A stretch of DNA of 32,000 bases, from positions 300,001-332,000 of the forward strand of contig CBDCNV010000001.1 of the NCBI GenBank assembly GCA_965219535.1, in the 5' to 3' direction. This DNA comes from Opitutales bacterium (GTDB lineage: Bacteria > Verrucomicrobiota > Verrucomicrobiia > Opitutales > PNEW01). Made by a program: the position numbers and the translations under genes. Every line of letters starts with the position of its first letter. Position 1 is the first letter of the stretch. The notes below the pieces were generated by a model. The model was not told the DNA's origin. It saw only the letters and a list, made by a program, of their open reading frames with translations, and ran no database searches. Positions 6,960 to 21,531 of this stretch are shown here, in pieces.

Positions 6960-9862
6960 TTTTCGTTGAGAATGTCACTACTGATAGGAAGGGTGGCGAT
7001 TGGGTAATCTCCGACGTAGGCGTAGCGAGAATAGATGGGCCCTGACATACCGATTACACCGCTCTCCTGGATAGCGCTGAGGCCACGCCATAATTCATTG
7101 AGATCGAGAATGGAATCCAGATCGATTTGCGGGCTTAGTTCACTGTCCGGTCGCAACATACTCGCCACTATTCGCCGACCGCCACGCTCACGAAGTGCGA
7201 GCATATAAAGCGCAATTTGCACTCCCGCTCCTTTTTTAAGCGTAGCAGGACTAAGCGCTTTATCGCGACCTGTTTTGAAATCGATGACCCAAAAATCCGC
7301 TGAATCAGGTAATGGCGTCTCATCATTAATCGCGGAAATATCCTCGGTAGAAAAGACGAGGTCAATACGCCCACTGAGGGGGAATTTCAGATCGGCGTTC
7401 AGGGAAGCGAGGGTACTTTTCAGATCCAATTCCGAGGCGACAAAAGGCCAGTCTTTAATTGCCGTCACGGCATCTGCTAAATGCCTACTGTATTGAAAAG
7501 CTTCTGCCCATAAGGAGTGCCACCAATCGGGTAAACTACGATTAGCCCGATCATAGGCGCGCGATACTTTATCAAAAGTATTAGTCGCGGAATCTCTTAC
7601 CTGTGCGGTCCATTCCCCTTTCGCGGGAAGGGGGAAAAATCCCTGACTCGTCGACAGTCGCATCCAATGATGCACCCAATTACCGACGAATAAAGGTCGA
7701 GAAACAGCATGGTTAAAATCAGGTGACTTAGAGACACCCAACACTTTCTCGAACCACACGGAGGCCGGTCTTGAGAGAATATCTTCCCAGCTTTTGCAGG
7801 ATAAATGCAGACCGCCCGGGGGAGGTGATTGAAAGCTGAATTCATATTCACCGTAACCTTCACTAGGATCGCGCCGTATTTTAAATGCATGGAGCATGCG
7901 ATCGATATCTGATACGGGATCCGGGTCCTCGGTTTGCAAACGCTCGCACCATGCCGCGGTCTTTTTACTCAAGGCTTGCAGGTGGATTTCGTTGAGAAAA
8001 ATACCCTTGTCCACCCAGTAAAGACGCAGGAGAAAATCGCTGATAATAACCGATCGATTATAATCTTCCTCCGTGGATAAACTTGCTGAAACCGTTAGTC
8101 CCACCTTCACGCATTCAAGAAGATTAATAAACTGTGCGAGTGCCTGTGACCTTTTCTCCTCCGCGGTGAGGATGAGGCCAACCCCCTTTTTAAGAACCTG
8201 GTGTCCTTCACCCTGTGAACCCTGGAGAATCACTGAACGATTGATATCATCAATTTTAGGTTCAGGAAGAAACGCGTTCGGGTGCATCTCTGGAGGCCAC
8301 GCCCCGTGGTTTAAACCTGCGATAATGAGGTGAGTAAAAGACTGATCCTGAATTTGTTCATAGGCGAGAAGTTGAAGCGGGGCGAGCAGTTGTCGGCCGA
8401 GGGAGTGGCGCGTCCGCCCCGGTGTTCGATTTATTTCAACTAACCATTGAAGAAAATGTCGGCGGTCTATTGAGTAATCGAGCGCCTTAATCAAGCCGCT
8501 GGCATGCTGAGTCAGGAATTCTGCTCTTTCATCCCAGTCGAGAAAATTCAAGGCTTTAGTGGCCAAAGATAGAAACTCGGTGAAGGGTGCTTTGGCGGGT
8601 ATCTGTGGCCAGTCTTCGAGAAATATTAAACCGGCACCCATGGGCTCACTCTCAATTAACCATTCCCGTATGACCGTGAGGTCATCAGTAATTACCGTAT
8701 CCAATGCTTTTTTTAGCGAGCGCTCGATTTTAGCAGCGTCGTTCGCGCTAATCAATTGTTGTTCTCGTCGAAGGTGAAGAAAGCTTATGATCTGCGGTAA
8801 TCGAGCATCCATTTGAAATTCTACCCAACGATTGAGGAGTGCCTGTTTTACGGGCTGAACCGGATAAAATCCGATCGTATCGTGATGCGGAATTTCAAAT
8901 CGTATTAAACAAGCGGCTACTTCACGGGCCAATGCCGATTCCCTGGGGACGACGATTCCGAGGCGATTACAGGAGGGCTGCAGCAAATAATTTACGCCCT
9001 GAGTTACCACCGCGATAGCTTCCAGCTTAACATTCGCAGCGATTTGATAATGAATGGCACTGTTACTTGAAGTGTCTTCATCGAGCCGATCCATCTCAAG
9101 ATTTTGAGCCCTCGTTTGATAGGGGTTTTCAGGCTGTTCACTACCCGAGATGAGCTCTGCTTCCCCGTAGTCTTCTTCCCACGTCGCCTGCCATAAGCGA
9201 TCACTCTCACACCGACTTTCCGGCAGGCAGAACGAAACTTTGTTCGCGGAATTAATTGCGCCCTGTAAAAGAAAACGATGGCGCCATTCGCGAGCTCCAA
9301 AACCATAGAGAAGGAGGGATGAAAGGTTCGAGGTATCCCTGGCTCGCGTTTCTGCGATTTTACGATTCGCTTGCGGTTCACTTAAGAGGCCGGATAAAAG
9401 AAGTAATTCCTCAAATCGGGCAATGATCCTACCCACTAAGTCACCTTTAAGTGACATAGTGGGTTGCGCAGCATGCTGCAAGGTATCATAAGCAATAAGG
9501 AGCTGATCCGGATCTGCAGCAATCGCCGCGGCGACAGGAAACTCGGAGAAATCGTCAGCCGCCGCCGCCATGAGTAGACGCAGGTCCTCACGCAGGGCAA
9601 TTCTATTGTCGGGAAGACAACTGTTGCGCAGATACTTTCCCAGATCTTCCGGTGTCCAGAGATGGATCGCGAAGAGAGGGAGTCGGGCTTGAATGAGACG
9701 TGTTTTAAGGAGACTGGTAAGCCCGTGTGACGGAACGACAGCAGCACAGGGCAGCGGGTTATGACAGGCTATTTGCAGTTCACTTTGAAACCAGGGTGCG
9801 ATCACCTCCTCCCAGGCTTGTTCAAAGCTTGAAGCCGAGTAGAGGCGGATGTTGGTCGGCAT
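6920..9862 (-). CDS. AddB-like partner subunit with C-terminal PD-(D/E)XK nuclease; no P-loop detected
   Basis: About 980-aa ORF immediately upstream of and overlapping the AddA-like gene. C-terminal motif GRIDLVFS...FWVIDFKTGR...QIALY. The start is taken as ATG 9862, which leaves 14 nt after the osmC stop. The ORF track's TTG at 9895 would overlap osmC by 19 nt. Confidence 0.7.
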   Translation of the reverse strand: MPTNIRLYSASSFEQAWEEVIAPWFQSELQIACHNPLPCAAVVPSHGLTSLLKTRLIQARLPLFAIHLWTPEDLGKYLRNSCLPDNRIALREDLRLLMAAAADDFSEFPVAAAIAADPDQLLIAYDTLQHAAQPTMSLKGDLVGRIIARFEELLLLSGLLSEPQANRKIAETRARDTSNLSSLLLYGFGAREWRHRFLLQGAINSANKVSFCLPESRCESDRLWQATWEEDYGEAELISGSEQPENPYQTRAQNLEMDRLDEDTSSNSAIHYQIAANVKLEAIAVVTQGVNYLLQPSCNRLGIVVPRESALAREVAACLIRFEIPHHDTIGFYPVQPVKQALLNRWVEFQMDARLPQIISFLHLRREQQLISANDAAKIERSLKKALDTVITDDLTVIREWLIESEPMGAGLIFLEDWPQIPAKAPFTEFLSLATKALNFLDWDERAEFLTQHASGLIKALDYSIDRRHFLQWLVEINRTPGRTRHSLGRQLLAPLQLLAYEQIQDQSFTHLIIAGLNHGAWPPEMHPNAFLPEPKIDDINRSVILQGSQGEGHQVLKKGVGLILTAEEKRSQALAQFINLLECVKVGLTVSASLSTEEDYNRSVIISDFLLRLYWVDKGIFLNEIHLQALSKKTAAWCERLQTEDPDPVSDIDRMLHAFKIRRDPSEGYGEYEFSFQSPPPGGLHLSCKSWEDILSRPASVWFEKVLGVSKSPDFNHAVSRPLFVGNWVHHWMRLSTSQGFFPLPAKGEWTAQVRDSATNTFDKVSRAYDRANRSLPDWWHSLWAEAFQYSRHLADAVTAIKDWPFVASELDLKSTLASLNADLKFPLSGRIDLVFSTEDISAINDETPLPDSADFWVIDFKTGRDKALSPATLKKGAGVQIALYMLALRERGGRRIVASMLRPDSELSPQIDLDSILDLNELWRGLSAIQESGVIGMSGPIYSRYAYVGDYPIATLPISSDILNEKWRQSHPLLPLPH

Positions 9863-9876
9863 TATATAAAGATGGG

Positions 9877-10293
9877 TCAGTCTTCGTCTACCCAATGAAA
9901 ACAGATGGGTTTATCGATATCGGGGTTCAGGCTGTAATGGACGGGGCAAGTCTCAGCAGCATGAATTAAAGCAGCTTTATGTTCCTCCGTCAGCTTACCG
10001 GGGACCCAGAACTCGACCGGCAGACGCATGATGCGTCTCGGTTTATCGCTGGTCATCTCTTTAGTCACTTCAACCTTCATCCCTTTCAGGTCGACCCCAA
10101 TTTTTTCAGCCTGAATCCCCATAATTGTCGCCATGCAGGTTGCGAATGCGGTGGCGCAGAGATCAGTTGGGGAAAAGCTTTCACCACGCCCATTATTATC
10201 AACCGGGGCATCGGTATTGAGCTGGGATCCCGATGGTCCATGAATCACCTGACAATGCAATTGACCCTCGTATTCTGCAGTAATTTTAACCAT
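9877..10293 (-). CDS. OsmC/Ohr-family protein (putative peroxiredoxin-type redox protein)
   Basis: 138 aa. It has the typical OsmC-family size and the two conserved Cys contexts (SPTDLCATAFATC and AETCPV). Confidence 0.85.
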   Translation of the reverse strand: MVKITAEYEGQLHCQVIHGPSGSQLNTDAPVDNNGRGESFSPTDLCATAFATCMATIMGIQAEKIGVDLKGMKVEVTKEMTSDKPRRIMRLPVEFWVPGKLTEEHKAALIHAAETCPVHYSLNPDIDKPICFHWVDED

Positions 10294-10500
10294 GAATAGA
10301 TTTGAATAAAAACAGCCTGGGCTTTCAATGCTATAACAGCGATTATTAATATTCGCGATCGCAGAATTTTTTTGAGCCCGGGAACGAGTGGAAATAAGCG
10401 CAGTTATGACGAACCGATAATAGTGCCCTGGGTTCAGGCCAGGATCTCATGTATTGATTATCTGAAAAAAAATCTTTGAACTTGGGATCGGATTTTGACT

Positions 10501-11736
10501 ATGAGTTTCACCAAAAAAATTAATGTGAAAATATTTTCAAAAAAAATGCGATCATCGCTCCCATCATTTATTCTCTCTGCCTGTCTGCTCAGCATTCAAA
10601 TAGTAAGTGGACTAAGCTTAAATGCAGCCTCTGAAGAAGAACGATCAGCGCGCCACGTGCAACGCGCGAACGAGTTGCGGGATATGGGTGATATCCAAGG
10701 GGCATTATTAGATTACAACGAAGCGATCCGCCTGGATGCTTTAAATGCAGAAGCGTTCCTCAATCGCGGCATTACACGGCAGAAGATGAAGCAGCTCGAT
10801 ACGGCAAGCGATGATTATACGATCGCCATTAAAATTGATCCCACATTGTCAGACGCCTATATTCGGCGGGGGCTTGTGAGCGTGGATAAGAGTGATTCCG
10901 AAGGAGCTATCGCCGACTTTTCTGAGGCCATACGGGTCGACCCTGAAAATTCTAAGGCCTACGCTTTGAGGGCACAGACAAAATTCGATGAAAAGGATTA
11001 TGCCGGGGCAATCGCAGATTACACAGCGACGATCACTTTGAATCCGGATAACCCTAATTACCTCTGTGAGCGAGGAAAAGCGAAGATGAAACAAGGGGAG
11101 TTAGATGAAGCCTTGATAGATTATTCTTTAGCGGTCGAGCGGTTTCCCGGTTACGCACGCGCCTATTACCTGCGTGGAACTCTCTTTATTGAAATGGACG
11201 AACTGACGAAAGCGATGAAAGAATTTGACAAGGCGGTAAAAGCATCGAACGGATCGAATGGAGCGCTGCTAATGCGAGGGTTTATCTCCTATGCTCAGGG
11301 GAAATCAAAAAAAGCGCTGAATGACATGCGCGTGAGTCAGAAGACGGAGCTTAAACAAGAAGCGCGAAATTATACGCAACTATGGCTCTGGTTAGCGGAA
11401 ACACAATTAGGGCAGCCGAGCTTAGCAGAAACGGAATTGAAAAATTATTTTCATCACCGATCAAGTAATGAGGAAGACTTTGATCCCTGGTATAAAGCTT
11501 TAGTACATTTTTTTCTCGGTGATATTGACGAAGATTCTCTGCTCGCAAAAGCAAATGAGGGAGACGACGAAGAGAAAATAGCAGGCCAGCGTTGTGAAGC
11601 CTATTTTTATGCCGCACAACTTCGCCAGTTGCGTGGTGATAGAAGCGGATCAATTCCATTGCTCGAACAGAGTGTAGCTTCTGGAATGACGGACTTTTAT
11701 GAATACAAAGGAGCGAAAGTACAGCTAAGTAATTAA
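10501..11736 (+). CDS. Exported TPR-repeat protein, NlpI-like C-terminal half
   Basis: About 410 aa. N-terminal signal-like region (KKMRSSLPSFILSACLLSIQIVSGLSLNAAS) with either a lipobox-like LSAC or Sec cleavage after LNA. It contains about 6 consecutive TPR units (recurring A..Y..AI..DP). The start is ambiguous (TTG 10495, ATG 10501, ATG 10546). Confidence 0.75.
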   Translation: MSFTKKINVKIFSKKMRSSLPSFILSACLLSIQIVSGLSLNAASEEERSARHVQRANELRDMGDIQGALLDYNEAIRLDALNAEAFLNRGITRQKMKQLDTASDDYTIAIKIDPTLSDAYIRRGLVSVDKSDSEGAIADFSEAIRVDPENSKAYALRAQTKFDEKDYAGAIADYTATITLNPDNPNYLCERGKAKMKQGELDEALIDYSLAVERFPGYARAYYLRGTLFIEMDELTKAMKEFDKAVKASNGSNGALLMRGFISYAQGKSKKALNDMRVSQKTELKQEARNYTQLWLWLAETQLGQPSLAETELKNYFHHRSSNEEDFDPWYKALVHFFLGDIDEDSLLAKANEGDDEEKIAGQRCEAYFYAAQLRQLRGDRSGSIPLLEQSVASGMTDFYEYKGAKVQLSN

Positions 11737-11911
11737 GCGCTTATTCAAGGTTAAATTAGCGACAGAATAGAATAGCGCGATTATTTCATTTTAAACCTGC
11801 GGTTCCTGAGATAGAGAAATTATGATTAAATCTGCACTATAAATGCATTATTGTATTCTCCTTGCCGTTGCACTTGAGTTTTTTATTTAAAAACATAGTA
11901 TTGGAACTCGC

Positions 11912-13618
11912 GTGAAAAAAAATAATGATGCAGATGAATCCTTGCCTGAGGATGATGCTCACTTAGGTCAAGACGAGGAATTCGATGAGGATTCAATTGA
12001 AGAGGAGAATCCCTTCAGTCTCTCTGCGTTACAACTTTTCGACCGTATCGCAAAAAGTCCACTTCTTCAATCAAGTGACTGGATTGAATTTAAGTTACTT
12101 CGCGATCGCATTGAAGAGATGGAGGAGATCCAGGACCAGGCGCGCAACGCGGTCGAGCAATTAAGTGAAGCCGTCGATAAACTGCGCGCACCGGCACTAC
12201 GCCTTGGGACCCTTATTCAACGAGTTGGGCATGACCGCGCCATGGTCTGCGCAAATGGGACCGATTACTTGTGTAATGTAGATCCTTCACTGCCTGACGC
12301 GGTTCTTGAAACTGGTATGAGAGTCCTCCTTAATGAAGCTTTTGCGATAACTGATTCTTTCGGTCTGGACAAAAGTGGTCCCATTGTCCGCATTCAGGAA
12401 TTGATGAGTGACGGACGTATCCGCGTGGGTTCAGAACATGGTCTGTCGGATACCACGGCCATCCGATCCAGCCTGCTCAATAAAGAGAAATTAAAAATCG
12501 GTATGGATGTGAGACTCGATCCGAATCAAAAGGTGGTGGTGGAAATTATTGGGCAGGCGAATAGAATCGAACGCAGTCTCGCCACCGTAGAACCGGTGCC
12601 CTGGGAAGCTGTCGGTGGCCAGGAGGAAGCGATTGAGGCCATACGCGACTCTATTGAATTACCTTTTTTACACGCTCATCTCTATAAGCAATATAACCAC
12701 CCGGCTCCCAAGGGGTTCCTTCTTCATGGTCCGCCCGGATGCGGGAAGACGTTGATGGGTAAAGCGACCGCCCACAATTTGAGACAGCAGGTACTGGCGC
12801 ACAGTGGTGAAAACCGAGCGGAATTTTTTTTACAAGTCAAAGGCCCGGAGATTCTTAATATGTGGCTTGGTGAATCAGAACGTCAGGTCCGCGATCTCTT
12901 TGCACAGTGTCGTGAAAAAGCTTCTGAAGGTCAGCTCGCTTTTCTGTTTATCGATGAGGCAGAATCGATTTTAGGCACGCGCGGTGCATTTCGGTCAGGT
13001 AACAGTATTGTATCCACACTTGTTCCGATGTTTTGCGCGGAAATGGATGGGATTGAGGCATTGAAAAATGTGGTAGTCATCCTGGCATCGAATCGTGCCG
13101 ATCTTATCGATCCCGCGATATTGCGGCCCGGACGTATTGATCGAAAGATTGGGGTTAAGCGTCCTAACAGCGAGGCGGCACGTGATATTTATGGAATTTA
13201 TCTCAATGAAGCGCTGCCTCTGGCCGAGCCGCGTGACAAGCTTATCGATGGAATTGTAAGCACACATTATGCGAAGAGCGAATCCAACCGATTTCTTGAA
13301 GTTACCTATCGCAGCGGCAAACGAGAGCATCTTTATCGCGGTGATCTTTCAAGCGGCGCGGTGATAGCAGCCATCGTCGAACGGGCCAAGGGCATTGCGA
13401 TTAAAAGAACGATAAAAGAAGGAAAAGACACGCCTTCGCCAATTACATCCGAGGACCTTCAACAAGCCTTCGATAAAGAATATCAGGAAAATGAATTATT
13501 TCCTCCCACTGATATGACGGAAGACTGGCTTAAATTAACGGATTTTGACCCTTCTAATATTGTCAGTCTCAATCCGTATCGGAAAAAAACGCGAGAAAGT
13601 CACGGCTCGTCAGTATAG
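11912..13618 (+). CDS. mpa: Proteasome-associated AAA+ ATPase (Mpa/ARC homologue)
   Basis: 568 aa with a GTG start. Walker A GPPGCGKTL, Walker B FLFIDEAES, and ASNRADLIDPAILRPGRIDRKI. A coiled-coil-like segment (IEEMEEIQDQARNAVEQLSEAVDKLRA) is followed by an OB-like region. The AAA module is collinear, block by block, with my memory of M. tuberculosis Mpa (KGPE.LN...GE.ER..R..F...REKASEG). Confidence 0.9.
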   Translation: MKKNNDADESLPEDDAHLGQDEEFDEDSIEEENPFSLSALQLFDRIAKSPLLQSSDWIEFKLLRDRIEEMEEIQDQARNAVEQLSEAVDKLRAPALRLGTLIQRVGHDRAMVCANGTDYLCNVDPSLPDAVLETGMRVLLNEAFAITDSFGLDKSGPIVRIQELMSDGRIRVGSEHGLSDTTAIRSSLLNKEKLKIGMDVRLDPNQKVVVEIIGQANRIERSLATVEPVPWEAVGGQEEAIEAIRDSIELPFLHAHLYKQYNHPAPKGFLLHGPPGCGKTLMGKATAHNLRQQVLAHSGENRAEFFLQVKGPEILNMWLGESERQVRDLFAQCREKASEGQLAFLFIDEAESILGTRGAFRSGNSIVSTLVPMFCAEMDGIEALKNVVVILASNRADLIDPAILRPGRIDRKIGVKRPNSEAARDIYGIYLNEALPLAEPRDKLIDGIVSTHYAKSESNRFLEVTYRSGKREHLYRGDLSSGAVIAAIVERAKGIAIKRTIKEGKDTPSPITSEDLQQAFDKEYQENELFPPTDMTEDWLKLTDFDPSNIVSLNPYRKKTRESHGSSV

Positions 13619-13636
13619 AATTGGCGCTGAACGTAT

Positions 13637-15160
13637 ATGGCGGATATACACTTCGGTCTGGAAACAGAATTCGGCATAACGCGTCAGAACGCTGAGGGAA
13701 TCGATGTCGTTGCCGAGTCGATCGCTCTCGTTAAAAGCGCGAAGGCATCCGGTATCCGATTGCGATGGGATTACCATTATGAAGATCCCCATCAAGACGC
13801 GCGAGGATTTCGGGTAAAAGAACTAAAGCAGGATTTTGATGAAGCAAACTACTTCGCCCAGGATGCCGCGCGAACCTTAACCTTAGGAGAAATTAAGAGC
13901 GATTTGGTCTTAATCAACGGCGCGCGGTTTTATAATGATCACGCTCACCCGGAATATTGTACGCCTGAGTGCCGCTCGCTGTTACAACTGGTCCAGCAGG
14001 ATTACATCGGCGATCAATTGCTCATGAACTGTGCAAAGGCGATAAATAAAAAAACGGACAATCCCGTTATGCTCTATAAAAATAATACCGATTTTCAGGG
14101 CCATAGCTATGGTTGTCATGAGAATTATTTAATCCCGCGCGAATTACCCTGGGAAACACTCGCCCAGGGGATCCAGGCATTTTTTGTCACGCGGCAGCTA
14201 TTTTGCGGGGCCGGTAAATACGGTTGGGAAAGCGAGGATAAGTACCTGCAGTCAGGCTTTCAAATCAGTCAGCGCAGCGACTTTTTTTCCGAACTGCAAA
14301 GCGTGGATACGATGCAGCGGCGGCCGATTGTTAACACGCGAGATGAGCCCCATGCAGATGAAGATAAATGGCGCCGCTTTCACGTGATTATCGGTGATGC
14401 CAATCTATCGCCTTATGCGACCTGGTTAAAAGTCGGCACGACTGCCTTAGTTATCAATTGTTTAATAAACGGGGTCAAATCTGATGAGATCCCGCAACTC
14501 GATGATCCTCTTCATGCGTTAAAGTCTATATCGCGCGATCCTTATTGGAAATGGATCGTACGAACAGCCGATGGAAGAACGAGTAATGCGATTGAGGTCC
14601 AACGCCGTTATCTGGAACTGGCGCGTCGATATGGTGATAATATGCAGGGGGAATGGCAGCTGATCTTTGAGGCCTGGGAGAAAATCCTCGATGATTTAGA
14701 GAATAATCCGATCTCTACTGCGGATCGGCTCGATTGGGCGGCAAAATATAAACTTATCGAATCTTTTCGCGAAACGGAAAAAATCAGTGATGATTCTGCG
14801 TGGCTGCGAAGTTTGGATCTCGAATACCATCGGCTCGATCAAAATGAAGGACTTTATTACGCCTTACTCGAGCAAGGCACCCTCTCGTTGCCTTATGCGG
14901 CCGAAGAATTTATGGTTGATACGATAATTTCACCCCGAGACACCCGTGCGGCGATAAGAGGCGCCTGTATTGAAAAGTTCGGTTCACGCATAATAAGTGC
15001 ACAATGGGACTGTGTCCGGATCGAAGGGGATGTAAAAAAGATTGAACTTAATTTGCGTGATCTATTTGATGTAGGTATTATTAATCAAGGAATAAAGCTA
15101 ATTAAATTAGCAAGCAAAGCTGAAGATTTGGAGCAGCTGCCGTTTGCGAGTGTTATTTAA
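13637..15160 (+). CDS. dop: Dop-like deamidase/depupylase (Pup-ligase superfamily, long paralogue)
   Basis: 507 aa. Motifs GLETEFG, RWDYHYEDPHQDARGF (Dop-loop region), NGARFYNDHAHPEYCTPEC, YGCHENY, GFQISQRSDF, VNTRDEPHAD..WRRFHVIIGDANL and LDWAAKYKL. It sits between the ATPase and the tag gene, as dop does in actinobacteria. Confidence 0.85.
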   Translation: MADIHFGLETEFGITRQNAEGIDVVAESIALVKSAKASGIRLRWDYHYEDPHQDARGFRVKELKQDFDEANYFAQDAARTLTLGEIKSDLVLINGARFYNDHAHPEYCTPECRSLLQLVQQDYIGDQLLMNCAKAINKKTDNPVMLYKNNTDFQGHSYGCHENYLIPRELPWETLAQGIQAFFVTRQLFCGAGKYGWESEDKYLQSGFQISQRSDFFSELQSVDTMQRRPIVNTRDEPHADEDKWRRFHVIIGDANLSPYATWLKVGTTALVINCLINGVKSDEIPQLDDPLHALKSISRDPYWKWIVRTADGRTSNAIEVQRRYLELARRYGDNMQGEWQLIFEAWEKILDDLENNPISTADRLDWAAKYKLIESFRETEKISDDSAWLRSLDLEYHRLDQNEGLYYALLEQGTLSLPYAAEEFMVDTIISPRDTRAAIRGACIEKFGSRIISAQWDCVRIEGDVKKIELNLRDLFDVGIINQGIKLIKLASKAEDLEQLPFASVI

Positions 15161-15177
15161 GCGACAAGACTTATATT

Positions 15178-15354
15178 ATGCCAGATCCCACGAGAAAAGT
15201 TAAACCGATGAATCCAGCACCTGGCGGGGGCGGCGATGGCGAGGGGCCCAAGGAACCGAAGGTCAAAAAACCGAACACCGATGACCTGCTGAAACGAATG
15301 AAAAAGGTTGATCCTGACCAGGCAAAACGCTACCGCCAGCGTACCGGTCAATAG
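15178..15354 (+). CDS. Small ubiquitin-like modifier of the Pup/UBact type (58 aa, C-terminus ...YRQRTGQ)
   Basis: ATG at 15178 to TAG at 15352-15354. Translation: MPDPTRKVKPMNPAPGGGGDGEGPKEPKVKKPNTDDLLKRMKKVDPDQAKRYRQRTGQ. It is below the 60-aa cut-off of the ORF track. It occupies the pup position between dop and prcB, has a Gly/Pro-rich N-half and ends in Gly-Gln. Confidence 0.8.
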   Translation: MPDPTRKVKPMNPAPGGGGDGEGPKEPKVKKPNTDDLLKRMKKVDPDQAKRYRQRTGQ

Positions 15355-15357
15355 TCA

Positions 15358-16137
15358 TTGCTGATAATGAGTGATCCCCGCGCAATGAACGGTGACTTTT
15401 TATCTTTGTTGCCCAAGCATCCATTTCCTCATCTCGAACAGTTGAGTAATCAGACGTCGACCCTTGAAGCGACCACCGTATTTGCTTTTCACTGCAAGGA
15501 GGGTGTTCTTTTCGCGGGGGATCATCGCGCGACAAGTGGGAATGTCATTTTTTCTGACAGCACGGAGAAAATTCTTGAACTTGATGAGCGATCGATCATG
15601 GCAATCGCGGGATCACCGGCGATCGCCATAGAAATGGCTAGAACCTTGCGCACGGCATTTGAATTTTACCGCCGCAGCCAGTTGCAACCGATGAGCCTGG
15701 CCGCTAAAGTGCGCGCGCTTTCCCGTCTTCTGCGTGATAATCTTCCGGTAACCCTTCAAGGTGTGGGAGCGGTTGCGCCCCTCTTTGCCGGACAGGACAG
15801 TACGGGAGATAAAGCAATTCCGACTATTTACTTTTACGATCCGCTGGGTGCGAATTTTGAAGCGGCTAACTATGCCGCTTCAGGATCTGGCTCCGGTCAT
15901 ATCAAGAGTGTGCTCAGCTATCTGGAAAATTGGGGAAACCCTAAACCCGCGGATATGGATCTGCCGGTATCCGTCAATCTGGCCAATCGATTGCTGATGA
16001 CCGCCGCTGAATTTGACGCAGCGACCGGTGGAGTGAAGCCCGAGACTAAATCATTTGCGACGATTAAACTGCTTTCCAAAAACGGTGTGCGCTCTCTCGA
16101 TGCGAACGAACAGATGAAATACTGGAAGGCGAACTGA
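15358..16137 (+). CDS. prcB: 20S proteasome beta subunit with propeptide
   Basis: 259 aa from TTG 15358; ATG 15367 is the more likely start. Aligned by eye to Mtb PrcB, TTVFAFHCKEGVLFAGDHRATSG...EK supplies Thr1 (15472), Asp17 and Lys33. The stop lies 2 nt before the prcA ATG. Confidence 0.9.
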   Translation: MLIMSDPRAMNGDFLSLLPKHPFPHLEQLSNQTSTLEATTVFAFHCKEGVLFAGDHRATSGNVIFSDSTEKILELDERSIMAIAGSPAIAIEMARTLRTAFEFYRRSQLQPMSLAAKVRALSRLLRDNLPVTLQGVGAVAPLFAGQDSTGDKAIPTIYFYDPLGANFEAANYAASGSGSGHIKSVLSYLENWGNPKPADMDLPVSVNLANRLLMTAAEFDAATGGVKPETKSFATIKLLSKNGVRSLDANEQMKYWKAN

Positions 16138-16139
16138 TC

Positions 16140-16859
16140 ATGCATGAAGAACCCTATCGCTGGCTCGAAGCGATTCAGAATCGTCGTGAATATATCGTCG
16201 ATCAAATCAAGGAGGGCACGCCGGTATTTGCTCTTTCTCGACCGGAAGGGGTACTTTTATTAGGCGTTGGGAGTGGACAGTCTAAAATTTTTGAAATTTT
16301 TGACCGGCATGGTTTAGCAGCGCTCGGCAATCCAGTCGATATTGAAAAGCTCAGGCAGACGGCGATTGAGGCGGCACATACCGAGGGGTTTAACCGCTCT
16401 TCAGATGATGTAACCTTGCGCCGCCTCGTAAGCTTTTCTCTAAGCCCGGCACTGAAAAACAGTTTTGAGCAGATATTTTCACCCCCCAATATGGTCGAAT
16501 CCATTCTTGCTGAAGTGGGACCAACGCCGAGCAAAGACGCGATCGTACGTTTGCGATTTGACGGTAATCATGAATATTCCTCATCCGGTATCGCCGTTGC
16601 CAGTCCCGTCTGGGGAACCGAGTCTATTGCCGCGGAGTGGTTGCGGGAGACGATAAATAAAGGTGATAAATTAGGGGATGTAATTTCTCTCTGTCTGACT
16701 GCATGGAAAGCGTTAAATGACGACAATCTTAATGATGGATTAAAAGTGCCAAAGAAAAAGGTTCTGAACATACCCGGAAAAACTGTTGAAGCTGTCCTTC
16801 TGGACCGCAAGCCCAAGGGTAATGTCCACTATCGATCTTTGGATACATCAGATCTATAA
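16140..16859 (+). CDS. prcA: 20S proteasome alpha subunit
   Basis: 239 aa. The N-terminal segment (EEPYRWLEAIQNRREYIVDQIKEGTPVFAL) parallels bacterial PrcA (..[22 protein letters not shown]..). It lacks a Thr1 active site and sits directly after prcB. Confidence 0.85.
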   Translation: MHEEPYRWLEAIQNRREYIVDQIKEGTPVFALSRPEGVLLLGVGSGQSKIFEIFDRHGLAALGNPVDIEKLRQTAIEAAHTEGFNRSSDDVTLRRLVSFSLSPALKNSFEQIFSPPNMVESILAEVGPTPSKDAIVRLRFDGNHEYSSSGIAVASPVWGTESIAAEWLRETINKGDKLGDVISLCLTAWKALNDDNLNDGLKVPKKKVLNIPGKTVEAVLLDRKPKGNVHYRSLDTSDL

Positions 16860-16868
16860 CCCAATCGC

Positions 16869-18215
16869 ATGTTGCGCCGGATCATTGGTTTGGAGACAGA
16901 GTACGGCTGTCTTATCGAGCCGCCGCTAATACCCGAGAGAGTAATTCCTGAAATCCGGGACTGGTTTTTCAATAATAACCGGTATGGCCTCATAGACACC
17001 CATGATCGGGATTGGGATGAGCCGGTGGGGAACGGGGGATTTTTATTTAACGGTGGCCGTATCTATGTCGATATGGGTCATATTGAGTATTGCACGCCGG
17101 AATGCGCGAGTGCTGTCGATACCGTTCTTTATGACCGGGCAGGTGATCTACTTCTTGTCGATGCCGTAGAAGATCTTGGCTATAACGGTAAAGTTAAATT
17201 TTTCCGCAATAATATAGATCATTACACCGGGGCGACTTTTGGGTGTCATGAGAATTACAGTATGGATCGCCATGCTCCTCTGTCAGAAAAAAACGTGCTC
17301 TCGCTGCTCGCCTTTCAGTCCATGCGTGTGCTCTTCGCGGGGTCAGGTCGCGTGGGTTCTGCCGGTGAGGGGAGCATTTACGAAACTGTCAGTGGAATAT
17401 ATGATAATGCCCCCTATCAACTCAGTCAGCGCGCGGATTACATTCATAACGATTTCTTTCAATGGGTGCAGCACAACCGTGCCATTATCAACACCCGAGA
17501 TGAACCACTCGCTGATCCGAGGAAATATCGACGGCTTCATCTACTGCACAGCGACACCAACGTTTTACCCGCGAATCAATTTCTCAAGGTGGGCGCCTCA
17601 TCACTCGTTCTTGATCTTCTCGAAGATGATGCGATGCCGGAGATCGAATTAGATGACGCGGTCGGTTCACTCCACTTATTAAACCGTAGGTTGGAGCCGC
17701 CGTGGAATGTATTTACCCGTAACGGCGGCGAGGTGGACGCGGTCGAATTGCTCTATGAATATTGGGAAAAAGCAGATCAAAACTATCGGAACCGGGATCC
17801 GGAGTCCGATGCCATTCTCAATATTTGGAAAAAAGTACTGGACGGTCTGGCGAGTGACTGCACGGAACTGATTGGCGATCTGGATTGGGTAACGAAACAG
17901 TACCTTCTGGAACAGTTCATGGCCAATGAAAATCTTAATTGGGATGATCCCTGGCTGAAAGCACAAGATATAGAATATCATAATGTGGACCCGTCGGAAA
18001 GCCTCGGTCTGGCGTTGGCCAACCGCAATGGAATCTGGGAACCGGACGAAGCAGTCAATTCCAAAATAGAGCCGCCTAAAGACACGCGTGCATCTAAGCG
18101 CAGCAAATTGATGAGGGATATAGAAGGACATCAAAATTCATACATTCTTGATTGGGATAGGGTCGAATTACAGAATCATTGGCAAGAGACGCTTCTCGAC
18201 CCGTTTGAAACTTAG
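16869..18215 (+). CDS. pafA: PafA-like tag ligase (Pup-ligase superfamily, short paralogue)
   Basis: 448 aa. Motifs RRIIGLETEYG, NGGRIYVDMGHIEYCTPEC, FGCHENY, YQLSQRADYI, INTRDEPLAD..YRRLHLL, LDWVTKQYL and a C-terminal LLDPFET. It lacks the roughly 35-aa insertion seen in the Dop-like paralogue. Confidence 0.85.
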   Translation: MLRRIIGLETEYGCLIEPPLIPERVIPEIRDWFFNNNRYGLIDTHDRDWDEPVGNGGFLFNGGRIYVDMGHIEYCTPECASAVDTVLYDRAGDLLLVDAVEDLGYNGKVKFFRNNIDHYTGATFGCHENYSMDRHAPLSEKNVLSLLAFQSMRVLFAGSGRVGSAGEGSIYETVSGIYDNAPYQLSQRADYIHNDFFQWVQHNRAIINTRDEPLADPRKYRRLHLLHSDTNVLPANQFLKVGASSLVLDLLEDDAMPEIELDDAVGSLHLLNRRLEPPWNVFTRNGGEVDAVELLYEYWEKADQNYRNRDPESDAILNIWKKVLDGLASDCTELIGDLDWVTKQYLLEQFMANENLNWDDPWLKAQDIEYHNVDPSESLGLALANRNGIWEPDEAVNSKIEPPKDTRASKRSKLMRDIEGHQNSYILDWDRVELQNHWQETLLDPFET

Positions 18216-18370
18216 AATTTTAATTATTCATGATGAAGCGCGCGAGCACCTCGGTGTGATGTAATGAGTAATGTAGCGCCTTATGTAACAAATAAGTTGT
18301 CAGGAGGTAGCAGATATTACACAGTCTGAGATTCTATTATTTCCTTAACGCCTGGATAATCACATTAACT

Positions 18371-19387
18371 ATGTCACGTGCCCTGATCACTGGAATTACC
18401 GGTCAAGACGGTTCCTATTTGGCTGAATTGCTTCTGAAAAAAGGTTATGAAGTCCATGGTGTCATCCGCCGATCATCGACTTTCAATACCTCCCGTATCG
18501 ATCATCTCTACCGAGATCCGCATCTAATGGGAACGCATTTGTTTCTCCATTACGGAGATTTATCGGATTCGGTACAAATGATTAAACTCCTTTACGATCT
18601 GGAACCCGAAGAGATTTATAATCTCGGTGCGCAAAGTCATGTCCGCGTATCTTTTGATATTCCAGAGTATACGGGGAATGTTACCGGATTAAGCGCAGTG
18701 CGAATTCTTGAGGCTGTGCGAGAAGCTGGCCTTGCTCGTCGTGTGCGCTATTACCAAGCCTCTTCTTCCGAAATGTTTGGTGAAGTTGCGGAGATACCGC
18801 AGACAGAAACAACACCCTTCCACCCGCGTTCACCTTACGGGTGTGCGAAAGTTTTTGCTTATTGGCTTACCGTCAATTACCGCGAATCTTACAATCTGCA
18901 TGCTAACAACGGAATCCTCTTTAATCATGAATCTCCCCGCCGAGGGGAAACTTTTGTCACGCGAAAGATTACGCAAGCTGCGGCGCGTATAAAAGTGGGT
19001 TTGCAGGATAAACTTTACCTCGGCAATCTTGATGCCCAGCGCGACTGGGGTTACGCACCTGAGTTTGTCGAAGCCATGTGGATGATGCTTCAACAGGAGA
19101 AACCTGACGATTACGTTATCGCCACGAATGAGACGCACAGCGTAAAAGATTTTTGCGTGGAAGCTTTTTCACGCGTCGACCTCGATTGGGAAAAATACGT
19201 TGAATATGACAAACGTTATGAGCGACCGGCCGAAGTGAATCTATTGAAGGGCAATCCGGCTAAAGCTAAAAGACAGCTCGATTGGGAACCCAAGGTCAAG
19301 TTCAAGGAGCTTGTCGGAATCATGGTTGATGCCGATGTGGAGATGGCTAAAAATGAAAAGGCCTATCAAGAAGCCGTGACCAGTTAA
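18371..19387 (+). CDS. gmd: GDP-mannose 4,6-dehydratase
   Basis: 338 aa. N-terminus [22 protein letters not shown] catalytic context [10 protein letters not shown], plus [12 protein letters not shown] and [13 protein letters not shown], all hallmark Gmd blocks. Confidence 0.95.
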
Positions 19388-19388
19388 A

Positions 19389-20330
19389 ATGAGCGATAAA
19401 ATATATGTCTCGGGGCATCGGGGCATGGTGGGATCAGCCATCGTGAGAGAGATGCGCGATCGGGGATTAGACAACCTGATATTACGCACACGTGATGAGC
19501 TCGATCTGTGTGACAATTCCGCAGTCGATGATTTTTTCCGTAAAGAAAAACCCACTACCGTTATTGTTTCAGCGGCAAAAGTAGGCGGTATTCACGCGAA
19601 TAGTACTTATCCTGCGGACTTTATCTATGAGAATCTTGCCATCGCCTTAAATACGATTCACGCCGCTTATAATAGTGGAGTGAGCCGACTGCTTTTCCTT
19701 GGGAGTTCCTGTATTTATCCTCGTGAGGCACTGCAACCGATGGCTGAAGAAAGTCTTCTATCGAGCGCCTTAGAATCTACTAATGAAGCTTACGCTATTG
19801 CTAAAATCGCGAGTCTCAAACTCTGTCAATATTACCGCAAGCAATACGGGGTTTTATTTCATTCAGCGATGCCGACCAATCTCTATGGTCCTGGTGATAA
19901 TTATCATCCCGAAAACAGCCACGTATTGCCCGCCCTTATCCGGCGGTTTCACGAGGCAAAAGAAGAGGGACAACCGTCAGTTACGATTTGGGGAACGGGG
20001 CAGGCGCGTCGGGAGTTTCTTCATGTCGACGATCTTGCGGGTGGCGTCTTACACCTTTTACAGCTTGATGATCCACCTGACTGGATAAACATCGGTTTCG
20101 GTGGAGACGTAACGATAATCGAAGTTGCGGAGCTCATAAAAAAAATAGTGGATTATAATGGGGAAATTAATTTCGACCCTTCAAAGCCTGACGGCACACC
20201 ACGCAAGTTGCTCGATAGCAAACGAATTTTTACCACCGGCTGGCAGCCGCAGATCTCGCTCGAGGAAGGGCTGGTGAGAACTTACAAGAATTTTCTTGAG
20301 GAACAAATGGCTGGAACTCTGAGAGTATAA
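19389..20330 (+). CDS. fcl: GDP-L-fucose synthase (GDP-4-keto-6-deoxymannose 3,5-epimerase/4-reductase)
   Basis: 313 aa. Motifs [46 protein letters not shown] and [10 protein letters not shown]. It starts 1 nt after the gmd stop. Confidence 0.92.
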
Positions 20331-20379
20331 TTACGGGATTATGAGAACAGCTTTAATAATTATTGCTTAAAATCCAGGG

Positions 20380-21531
20380 ATGAGCCGCTTTTTCATTGTT
20401 GCAGGAAAACGTACACCGCAGGGGCGTTTTCTAGGAAAACTTTCACGGTATTCAGCGGTTGATCTTGCTGTTGCGGCTGGAGAAAAGACGCTTTCGGGAA
20501 TCGACCCTTCAGTTATCGATTTAGTCATTGTCGGTAATATCCTGAGCGCGGGGCAGGGGATGAATATTGCCCGTCAGATCGGTGTCAAGTTGGGTGTGCC
20601 GGTGGACAGCACAGCTTTTACCGTAAACATGATGTGTGCTTCCGGACTTTGGTCTATAATTCTTGCGGCGCAGGCGATTAAAACAGGTGAAGCTTCTGTT
20701 GTTCTTTGCGGCGGAACTGAATCAATGTCTAATGCTCCGTACCTGCTTGAGCGCGCGCGCCAGGGTTATAAATTAGGGGATGGGGCTGTCGTTGACTCTA
20801 TCTTGCGCGACGGGCTGGTCGACAGTTTCGATCATCAGCACATGGGCATGAACGCAGAACGTCTCGCGAAAGAATATAATATAAGCCGCGCAGAGCAGGA
20901 TACTTTTGCCGAAGTCAGTCAAAGGCGTTATGCCGAAGCGGCGAGCGAAGGTCACTTTGATGCGGAAATGATCGCTATGAATGAGCTGGACAGCGACGAA
21001 CATCCGCGTCCGGACACGACGCTGGAGCACCTCGCGTCTTTGAAGCCGGTCTTCGATGAAAAAGGAAGTGTTACCGCCGGTAACGCATCGGGAATTAATG
21101 ATGGGGCAGCTATCTTAATCGTTTGTAGTGAGGAGGCGTTAAGTAAACATAACTGGGTTCCGCTCGCTGAAGTTGGCGCCTGGGCTTCGGTTGGCTGCGA
21201 TCCTAAATACATGGGACTAGGCCCGGTGCATGCCACGCGAAAATTGTGTGCGCAAAACGGTGACGCAGTAGATCAATTTGATACGATCGAAATAAATGAA
21301 GCTTTTGCCGTTCAGACCCTGGCCTGTATGAAAGAATTAAACCTGGACGCGGAAAAAGTGAATCAGGAGGGAGGGGCTATCGCGCTCGGCCATCCTGTCG
21401 GAGCGAGTGGTGCCCGCCTCGCCACCCACCTTGCTCATCGTATTCAATCGGGAAATACGCAGAAGGGTCTGGCCTCACTCTGTGTAGGTGGAGGTATGGG
21501 TGTCGCGGTTACGCTTCAACATGTATCGTGA
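20380..21531 (+). CDS. Acetyl-CoA C-acetyltransferase (thiolase II)
   Basis: 383 aa. Active-site Cys context VNMMCASG, plus NASGINDGAA, GHPVGASGARL and CVGGGMG. Confidence 0.92.
   Translation: MSRFFIVAGKRTPQGRFLGKLSRYSAVDLAVAAGEKTLSGIDPSVIDLVIVGNILSAGQGMNIARQIGVKLGVPVDSTAFTVNMMCASGLWSIILAAQAIKTGEASVVLCGGTESMSNAPYLLERARQGYKLGDGAVVDSILRDGLVDSFDHQHMGMNAERLAKEYNISRAEQDTFAEVSQRRYAEAASEGHFDAEMIAMNELDSDEHPRPDTTLEHLASLKPVFDEKGSVTAGNASGINDGAAILIVCSEEALSKHNWVPLAEVGAWASVGCDPKYMGLGPVHATRKLCAQNGDAVDQFDTIEINEAFAVQTLACMKELNLDAEKVNQEGGAIALGHPVGASGARLATHLAHRIQSGNTQKGLASLCVGGGMGVAVTLQHVS

Follow-up and report, generated by a model that had tools for sequence, protein, structure and literature searches.

In a stretch of 32,000 nucleotides of Opitutales DNA, the whole of which is referred to here as the window, a short space separates a gene of the Pup-ligase family from prcB, the gene for a proteasome beta subunit. 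Does this space hold a protein-coding gene, and if so, could the product be a tag that is joined to other proteins and leads them to the proteasome? An earlier note on the window had proposed a 58-codon gene for a modifier resembling UBact, which would be ligated to substrate lysines through its last residue once this residue, a Gln, had been deamidated to Glu. UBact is a Pup-like small modifier of Verrucomicrobiota and other Gram-negative phyla, and the family reportedly received its name, for ubiquitin Bacterial, from Lehmann, Udasin, Livneh and Ciechanover in 2017 (BBRC 483:946). Proteins of 50 to 90 residues ending in G[EQ] and encoded beside genes of the PafA family had been described from verrucomicrobia, nitrospirae, planctomycetes and deltaproteobacteria by Iyer, Burroughs and Aravind in 2008 (PMC2588565), who classed them as Pup orthologues, not as a separately named family, and predicted that these non-actinobacterial proteins are conjugated via Glu or deamidated Gln. 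A review of 2012 (PMC3511204) mentions a second system in Leptospirillum, the 'Pup' of which lacks GGE.

A 58-codon gene of the UBact family

The features of the locus are collected in Table 1. The gap measures 197 nt, as had been claimed, when the longest prcB ORF is considered, that is, between the end of the Dop-like gene at 15160 and a TTG start at 15358. The ATG-to-TAG frame is present in it, and its translation, MPDPTRKVKPMNPAPGGGGDGEGPKEPKVKKPNTDDLLKRMKKVDPDQAKRYRQRTGQ (58 residues), is identical to the one given in the earlier note, including the RYRQRTGQ directly before the stop, so that the terminus is indeed R-T-G-Q and not G-G-Q.

Table 1. Features of the proteasome locus in the window (positions are those of the window)
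Feature	Position	Strand	Remarks
TPR-repeat protein	10495-11736	+	co-oriented, just upstream of the ATPase gene
Mpa/ARC-like proteasomal AAA ATPase, 568 aa	11912..13618	+	Pfam AAA, Prot_ATP_ID_OB_N, Prot_ATP_ID_OB_C
Dop-like enzyme of the Pup_ligase family (paralogue 1), 507 aa	13637..15160	+	PF03136, 480.7 bits; predicted UBact deamidase and de-conjugase
Antisense ORF, 64 aa	15157..15351	-	TTG start; not a gene, by-product of the sense frame
UBact gene	15178..15354	+	ATG start, TAG stop, 58 codons plus stop; product ends ...RYRQRTGQ
PrcB, proteasome beta subunit	15358..16137	+	PF00227, 85.1 bits; likely start ATG 15367
PrcA, divergent proteasome alpha subunit, 239 aa	16140..16859	+	NCBIfam 20S_bact_alpha, 69.9 bits
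Second Pup_ligase-family protein (paralogue 2), 448 aa, no Dop-loop	16869..18215	+	PF03136, 354.5 bits; predicted UBact ligase

Profile searches, which had been suggested as a check of the likeness to UBact, bore it out, the cut-offs of both curated models being far exceeded. The product scored 85.3 bits (E 2.4e-24, gathering score 27.8) against Pfam PF20513, 'Prokaryotic ubiquitin-like protein UBact', and 92 bits, for a cut-off of 35, against the NCBIfam equivalog model NF033388, 'ubiquitin-like protein UBact', of which it covers positions 2-54 of 54. Its terminus, RYRQRTGQ, fits the pattern ...[KR]Y[RK]QR[TS]G[EQ] of the family. Pup-ligase paralogues, a proteasomal AAA ATPase and 20S subunits are encoded next to it, and the host lineage (Opitutales, Verrucomicrobiota) is Gram-negative and outside Actinobacteria. 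A phage origin was also considered, and no PHROGs match was obtained. Compared to the curated family, the window copy is alike in HMM membership, ...RYRQRTG[QE] terminus and length, as well as in its partners (Pup-ligase paralogues, AAA ATPase, PrcAB) and verrucomicrobial host. It differs in nothing of substance and is an ordinary member, 100% identical to a protein that is already public.

The gene had been described as hidden. This is correct in that it falls below the 60-aa threshold of the ORF list, and such a threshold can conceal genuine modifier genes; public gene calls, on the other hand, already contain UBact, and the exact 58-aa protein is called on 8 public contigs, with the annotation PF20513. 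The finding correctly rediscovers a family already known, and its novelty is low: the first reports date from 2008 and 2017, Pfam and NCBIfam both have curated models, and this very protein is present in public assemblies.

The annotation of the UBact start site is inconsistent between databases. Near-identical public gene calls vary in length, with 48 aa when Met11 is taken as the start, or 67-78 aa when upstream starts are used, and the 58-aa form is the one backed by the family alignment. Met11 was rejected as a start: M1, P2, K7 and P10 hardly vary, whereas most homologues have a residue other than Met at position 11. No obvious Shine-Dalgarno sequence was seen upstream of the ORF in the window.

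Selection acts on the sense frame

Conservation was analysed over 87 copies, namely the window and 86 related loci. The ORF, of 50-62 residues, is intact in 87 of 87, and the claim that it is conserved in syntenic relatives therefore stands. The product ends with RTGQ in 70 copies and with RTGE in 17, and the C-terminal Gly-Gln/Glu, for which a check had been asked, is invariant among full-length homologues.

Substitutions were counted over the last 31 codons, in a gap-free alignment. The mean pairwise differences per site were 0.184, 0.085 and 0.531 at codon positions 1, 2 and 3, respectively, and the Nei-Gojobori pN/pS ratio was 0.21 in the sense frame, versus 1.16 in the in-register antisense frame. 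The dN/dS-type check proposed in the earlier note thus returned the pattern of a coding sequence, with a low sense ratio and an excess of third-position changes. The same was seen in single pairs: the window and locus L002 differ by 10 nucleotides, all at third positions, 10 of 10 being synonymous when read in the sense frame and non-synonymous when read in the antisense one, and 29 of the 35 differences between the window and L008 fall at third positions.

The 64-aa antisense ORF, which the earlier note had pointed out, does exist. It is broken by a stop in L001, a locus 97.5% identical to the window, and in L008, and it is open in many other homologues. This frequent openness can be deduced from the genetic code, as stops in the antisense frame correspond to TTA, CTA and TCA in the sense frame, codons that are rare in a 58-codon gene with few Leu and Ser. 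With its pN/pS of 1.16, the antisense ORF evolves neutrally, and given the stops in L001 and L008, it is not the conserved frame of the pair. It gave no Pfam match at E<=10; a real antisense gene is ruled out by the substitution ratio, the stops in relatives and the lack of a family match. A non-coding RNA in the gap between the Dop-like gene and prcB was rejected as well, the best Rfam model (JUMPstart) reaching 17.3 bits for a gathering score of 35 (E 0.61). We conclude that 15178-15354 (+) encodes a genuine gene, which is under purifying selection and belongs to the curated UBact family.

Family size, termini and likeness to Pup

A search among 5.8 billion clustered proteins returned 432 clusters homologous to UBact. 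All of the best 120 of these 432 carry PF20513, several being named UBact by NCBI, and their last residue is Q in 93 cases and E in 27. In addition, a UBact profile of 36 sequences was run with HMMER over 1.84 billion 50%-identity representatives and yielded 177 clusters at E<=1e-3. The best 150 of the 177 representatives were inspected for their termini: 120 of the 150 end with RTGQ (66), RTGE (29), RSGE (15) or RSGQ (10), and the remaining ones look like frameshifted or read-through gene calls. No Pup-type GGQ or GGE terminus was found among these best 150 profile matches, in which Thr or Ser before the terminal Gly-Gln/Glu is the norm of the family.

Likeness to Pup was limited at the level of sequence. 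The product gave no match to the Pfam Pup family (PF05639) at E<=10, its terminus is Thr-Gly-Gln and not Gly-Gly-Gln/Glu, and the best PDB match of the UBact profile was Pup, 9cku_H, at an E of 0.77. With the M. tuberculosis Pup sequence, one single BLASTP comparison aligned TDDLL...Y.Q..GQ across a 4-residue gap (E 0.005). The UBact profile also hit residues 138-163 of PDB 4nb5_A (E 0.8), a 'DNA binding protein' that contains ...RYSQRTGE; this resemblance to the UBact terminus is probably due to chance.

The layout of the protein is closer to that of Pup. In an AlphaFold2 model built from a 36-sequence alignment (mean pLDDT 65), residues 1-33 have no secondary structure (pLDDT 54-62), and two helices are predicted at 34-43 and 46-56 (pLDDT 68-79). 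The model is consistent with the Pup-like architecture put forward in the earlier note, with an unstructured, Gly/Pro-rich N-half and a helix-forming C-half. A bihelical unit plus tail had been predicted for Pup and its non-actinobacterial relatives by Iyer et al. (PMC2588565), who also saw the alternation of Q and E at the last residue of Pup. UBact and actinobacterial Pup are alike in small size, predicted disorder, a predicted two-helix C-half and a terminal Gly-Gln/Glu, where Q and E alternate at the last residue only. They differ in the terminus itself (R-T-G-Q in UBact, G-G-Q in Pup), in the second helix, 4 residues shorter in UBact, and in net charge, which is +7 for UBact (+4 over the C-terminal 27 residues) compared to -12 for M. 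tuberculosis Pup. As UBact is basic and Pup acidic, the details of recognition are not simply transferable from one to the other, and the charge reversal suggests different electrostatics of tag recognition. UBact is Pup-like in layout and context; its sequence places it among the UBact proteins and outside the Pup family.

No relation to ubiquitin was detected. The AlphaFold2 model has no strands, at variance with a beta-grasp fold, the terminus is Gly-Gln, and the product has no ubiquitin-family Pfam match (E<=10).

A proteasome operon with the gene order of Pup loci

ATPase, Dop-like enzyme, UBact, PrcB, PrcA and paralogue 2 are encoded in this order on one strand of the window. The arc-dop-pup-prcB-prcA-pafA order is rigidly conserved in pupylating organisms according to the 2012 review (PMC3511204), and the order found here is identical (ATPase-dop-tag-prcB-prcA-pafA, or arc/mpa-dop-pup-prcB-prcA-pafA in Pup terms). 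It recurs, whole or partial, in the 86 related loci, where the adjacency of UBact and PrcB is almost universal. A Dop-like gene lies directly 5' of UBact in 58 of the 80 copies with enough upstream flank and is absent there, within 6-kb flanks, in the other 22 of 80; paralogue 2 is found downstream in 41 of the 71 copies with enough downstream flank. A scan of the operon for promoters and terminators gave counts that were not above those of shuffled sequences. The TPR gene is kept in the close relatives L001 and L005, and tblastn recovers it in about 5 of the 87 copies; whether the TPR protein is tied to the proteasome operon is uncertain.

The two enzymes of the Pup-ligase family

Paralogue 1 scored higher with Dop than with PafA, both against NCBIfam (434.6 versus 327.3 bits, each under the cut-off) and against sequences of known structure, where it aligned over its full length to Acidothermus Dop (4B0R) with 341.7 bits, compared to 216 bits for PafA (4B0T). 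The alignment with 4B0R spans the Dop-loop region, and the D-H-A-H motif of paralogue 1, NDHAHPEYCTPE, faces VDHAHPEYSTPE in Dop. The His and Ala beside the catalytic Asp are Dop-specific positions (Hecht et al., PMC7947786). These motifs are conserved in 48 orthologues, and the name Dop-like, used in the earlier note for the upstream gene, is supported by the scores, the loop region and the motif alike.

The downstream enzyme had been called PafA-like. Its membership of the Pup_ligase family is established by the PF03136 score; orthology to PafA, in contrast, could not be demonstrated. Paralogue 2 also scored somewhat higher with Dop than with PafA (285 versus 245 bits against NCBIfam, 210 versus 185 bits against PDB sequences), an observation that we counted against a Pup-type mechanism. 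In a neighbour-joining tree (349 ungapped columns, 200 bootstraps, aligned Dop and PafA sequences from PDB), which held one PafA sequence only, the split uniting paralogue 2 with PafA was found 97 times out of 200 and the one uniting both paralogues 102 times.

The motifs of paralogue 2 are mixed. It has no Dop-loop, its residues 16 to 50 corresponding to Dop residues 15 to 75, and its motif YVDMGHIEYCTPE (Y[VI]DMGH, YVDMGH in the window) lacks the Dop His and has a PafA-like Gly. On the other hand, the D-x-x-H spacing is of Dop length, without the one-residue insertion of PafA, and the CTP motif is Dop-like. The alpha-loop, YIHNDFFQWVQHNRAIINTRDEP, has the consensus NDFFEWVQxNRAIINTRDEPLAD in 40 orthologues and sets this enzyme apart from the ligase that partners Pup. 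Missing from it are the two conserved threonines that Dop and PafA share (Hecht et al., PMC7947786), which was also counted against a Pup-type mechanism. Both paralogues retain the GhExE motif and the catalytic Asp, and their signatures are conserved in 40 (paralogue 2) and 48 (paralogue 1) orthologues, meaning that both enzymes are under constraint. As paralogue 2 is the one devoid of Dop-specific features, we infer that it is the candidate UBact ligase.

The ATPase and the 20S subunits

The ATPase scored 422.9 bits against the NCBIfam model pup_AAA, under the cut-off of 504.75. Its N-terminus is acidic, with a net charge of -17 over the first 94 residues (11912-12193), and a coiled coil is predicted in addition to two OB domains. 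It ends with ...RESHGSSV, and among 43 orthologues all except one have Val or Ile in last place, usually after small residues. The C-terminal docking motif of Mpa is GQYL. Compared to Mpa, the ATPase of the UBact locus ends with two small residues and V/I, and a Tyr-containing tail of the GQYL kind is absent. This absence was counted against a Pup-type mechanism too.

PrcB scored 134.9 bits with the NCBIfam model 20S_bact_beta, under the cut-off. Gene calls on near-identical public contigs place its start at the ATG equivalent to 15367, giving a protein of 256 aa, in which the catalytic Thr of ...LEA|TTVFAF comes after a propeptide. Counting from TTVFAF, Thr1, Asp17 and Lys33 are all present, and the protease is therefore probably active. 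PrcA is very divergent and yet syntenic in most loci. It had no Pfam match at E<=0.01, and the sole model to recognise it was 20S_bact_alpha, with a score below the cut-off of 139.

Proposed mode of action and alternatives

Taken as a whole, the locus is best explained by UBact acting within a complete proteasome operon as a tag of the Pup type, a reading by analogy to which we give a probability of about 0.8. In mycobacteria, Dop deamidates the terminal Gln of Pup and also removes Pup from its targets, PafA uses ATP to phosphorylate the gamma-carboxylate of the Pup Glu and links it to a lysine, and Mpa binds the helical half of Pup and threads its disordered N-terminus (PMC3511204). By analogy, the Dop-like enzyme would deamidate the side chain of Gln58 into Glu, and paralogue 2, with ATP, would form a gamma-glutamyl phosphate on Glu58 and join it to a lysine of the substrate through the epsilon-amino group. 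The N-terminal coiled coil of the ATPase would recognise the two-helix C-half of UBact, and the disordered N-half would be threaded into the PrcAB proteasome. The Dop-like enzyme may also remove the tag.

The transfer of Pup chemistry to UBact is founded on the strict Q or E at the last residue, the invariant Gly before it, the two intact enzymes that belong to the carboxylate-amine-ligase family and the shared operon order. Since a carboxylate-amine ligase requires a carboxylate, deamidation of the Gln side chain would be necessary, except if the alpha-carboxylate served instead. Conjugation of UBact to lysines through its C-terminus, after conversion of Gln to Glu, is thus what we infer, as the earlier note did. 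In the literature searched, which did not comprise the original 2017 paper, we came across no experiments on the conjugation, deamidation or degradation of UBact, which appeared in passing mentions only. The Opitutales operon is compact, complete and apparently functional; it encodes the tag together with a Dop-like enzyme, a candidate ligase, an ATPase and the 20S subunits, and could be used for reconstitution.

The UBact system may also be more than a diverged Pup system acquired whole. Paralogue 2, with its WVQ alpha-loop, may have reached its specialisation separately from the PafA of Actinobacteria, tag recognition, ligation and docking having been solved anew; we regard this as possible, though doubtful. 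If true, paralogue 2, the charge-reversed basic tag and an ATPase without a Tyr docking tail would represent a second solution, in Verrucomicrobiota.

A first alternative keeps conjugation and distributes the labour otherwise. Paralogue 2, or some other amidase, would both deamidate and ligate, or the two paralogues would form a heteromer, the Dop-like enzyme being mainly a de-conjugase. Ligase-mediated deamidation and a heterodimer had both been floated by Iyer et al. (PMC2588565). The ambiguous descent of paralogue 2 speaks in the same direction, with its preference for Dop over PafA models, its Dop-length D-x-x-H spacing and its CTP motif (albeit without the Dop His), and the near-even split of 97 versus 102 out of 200 in the tree with one PafA sequence. 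So do those 22 copies, out of 80 whose upstream flank is long enough, in which no Dop-like gene adjoins a UBact gene whose product ends in Q. However, Dop genes missing from the 6-kb flank may sit elsewhere in the genome, the two activities are separate in Pup systems (PMC3511204), and paralogue 1 has the Dop-specific loop and DHAH, conserved in its 48 orthologues. All in all, we find such a redistribution unlikely compared to deamidation by the Dop-like enzyme and ligation by paralogue 2.

A non-covalent role, UBact being a free adaptor, a regulator or an assembly factor of the ATPase-proteasome complex, appears less probable still, to the point of being very unlikely. As UBact is short and basic and the N-terminus of the ATPase very acidic, a purely non-covalent contact is conceivable. 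Nevertheless, a last residue that is strictly Q or E after an invariant Gly, together with two enzymes that belong to the carboxylate-amine-ligase family, encoded alongside with intact catalytic motifs, is hard to explain without chemistry at the C-terminus. Finally, the idea that the frame is open by mere chance in an intergenic spacer, the true feature being the antisense ORF or a non-coding RNA, could draw on the shortness of the ORF, the lack of an obvious Shine-Dalgarno sequence and the open antisense frame of many homologues, and is refuted by the pN/pS ratios (0.21 versus 1.16), the antisense stops in L001 and L008, the curated HMMs that match the sense ORF and not the antisense one, and the absence of an Rfam match above noise in the gap.

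Hosts and variation around the locus

When GTDB species genomes were scanned, 453 stretches that encode relatives were recovered. The 80 loci kept are nearly all from MAGs of Verrucomicrobiota (Opitutales, Limisphaerales, Methylacidiphilales, Chthoniobacterales and Verrucomicrobiales); a few belong to bins of Latescibacterota or Gemmatimonadetes, and some bins are implausibly labelled. UBact loci of verrucomicrobial type were present in MAGs that carry the names Klebsiella, Akkermansia muciniphila, Proteobacteria and Saccharimonadales (L014, L016, L024, L042, L086 and others). Most likely, such contigs were mis-binned or mislabelled, and the names do not point to true hosts.

Among the close relatives, chromosome OY829953.1 of an Opitutales MAG (L007) is 97.1% identical to the window over 9176-21351, and the 97.5% identity of L001 extends across 13 kb. 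Identity of L001 to the window stops at 18313, just past the paralogue 2 gene, and the two diverge thereafter: beyond about 18313, L001 has GFO_IDH and PhyH genes, where the window has genes for a GDP-mannose dehydratase, an epimerase and a thiolase. L007 retains the arrangement of the window beyond this point, and the position around 18313 is a variable junction at the strain level.
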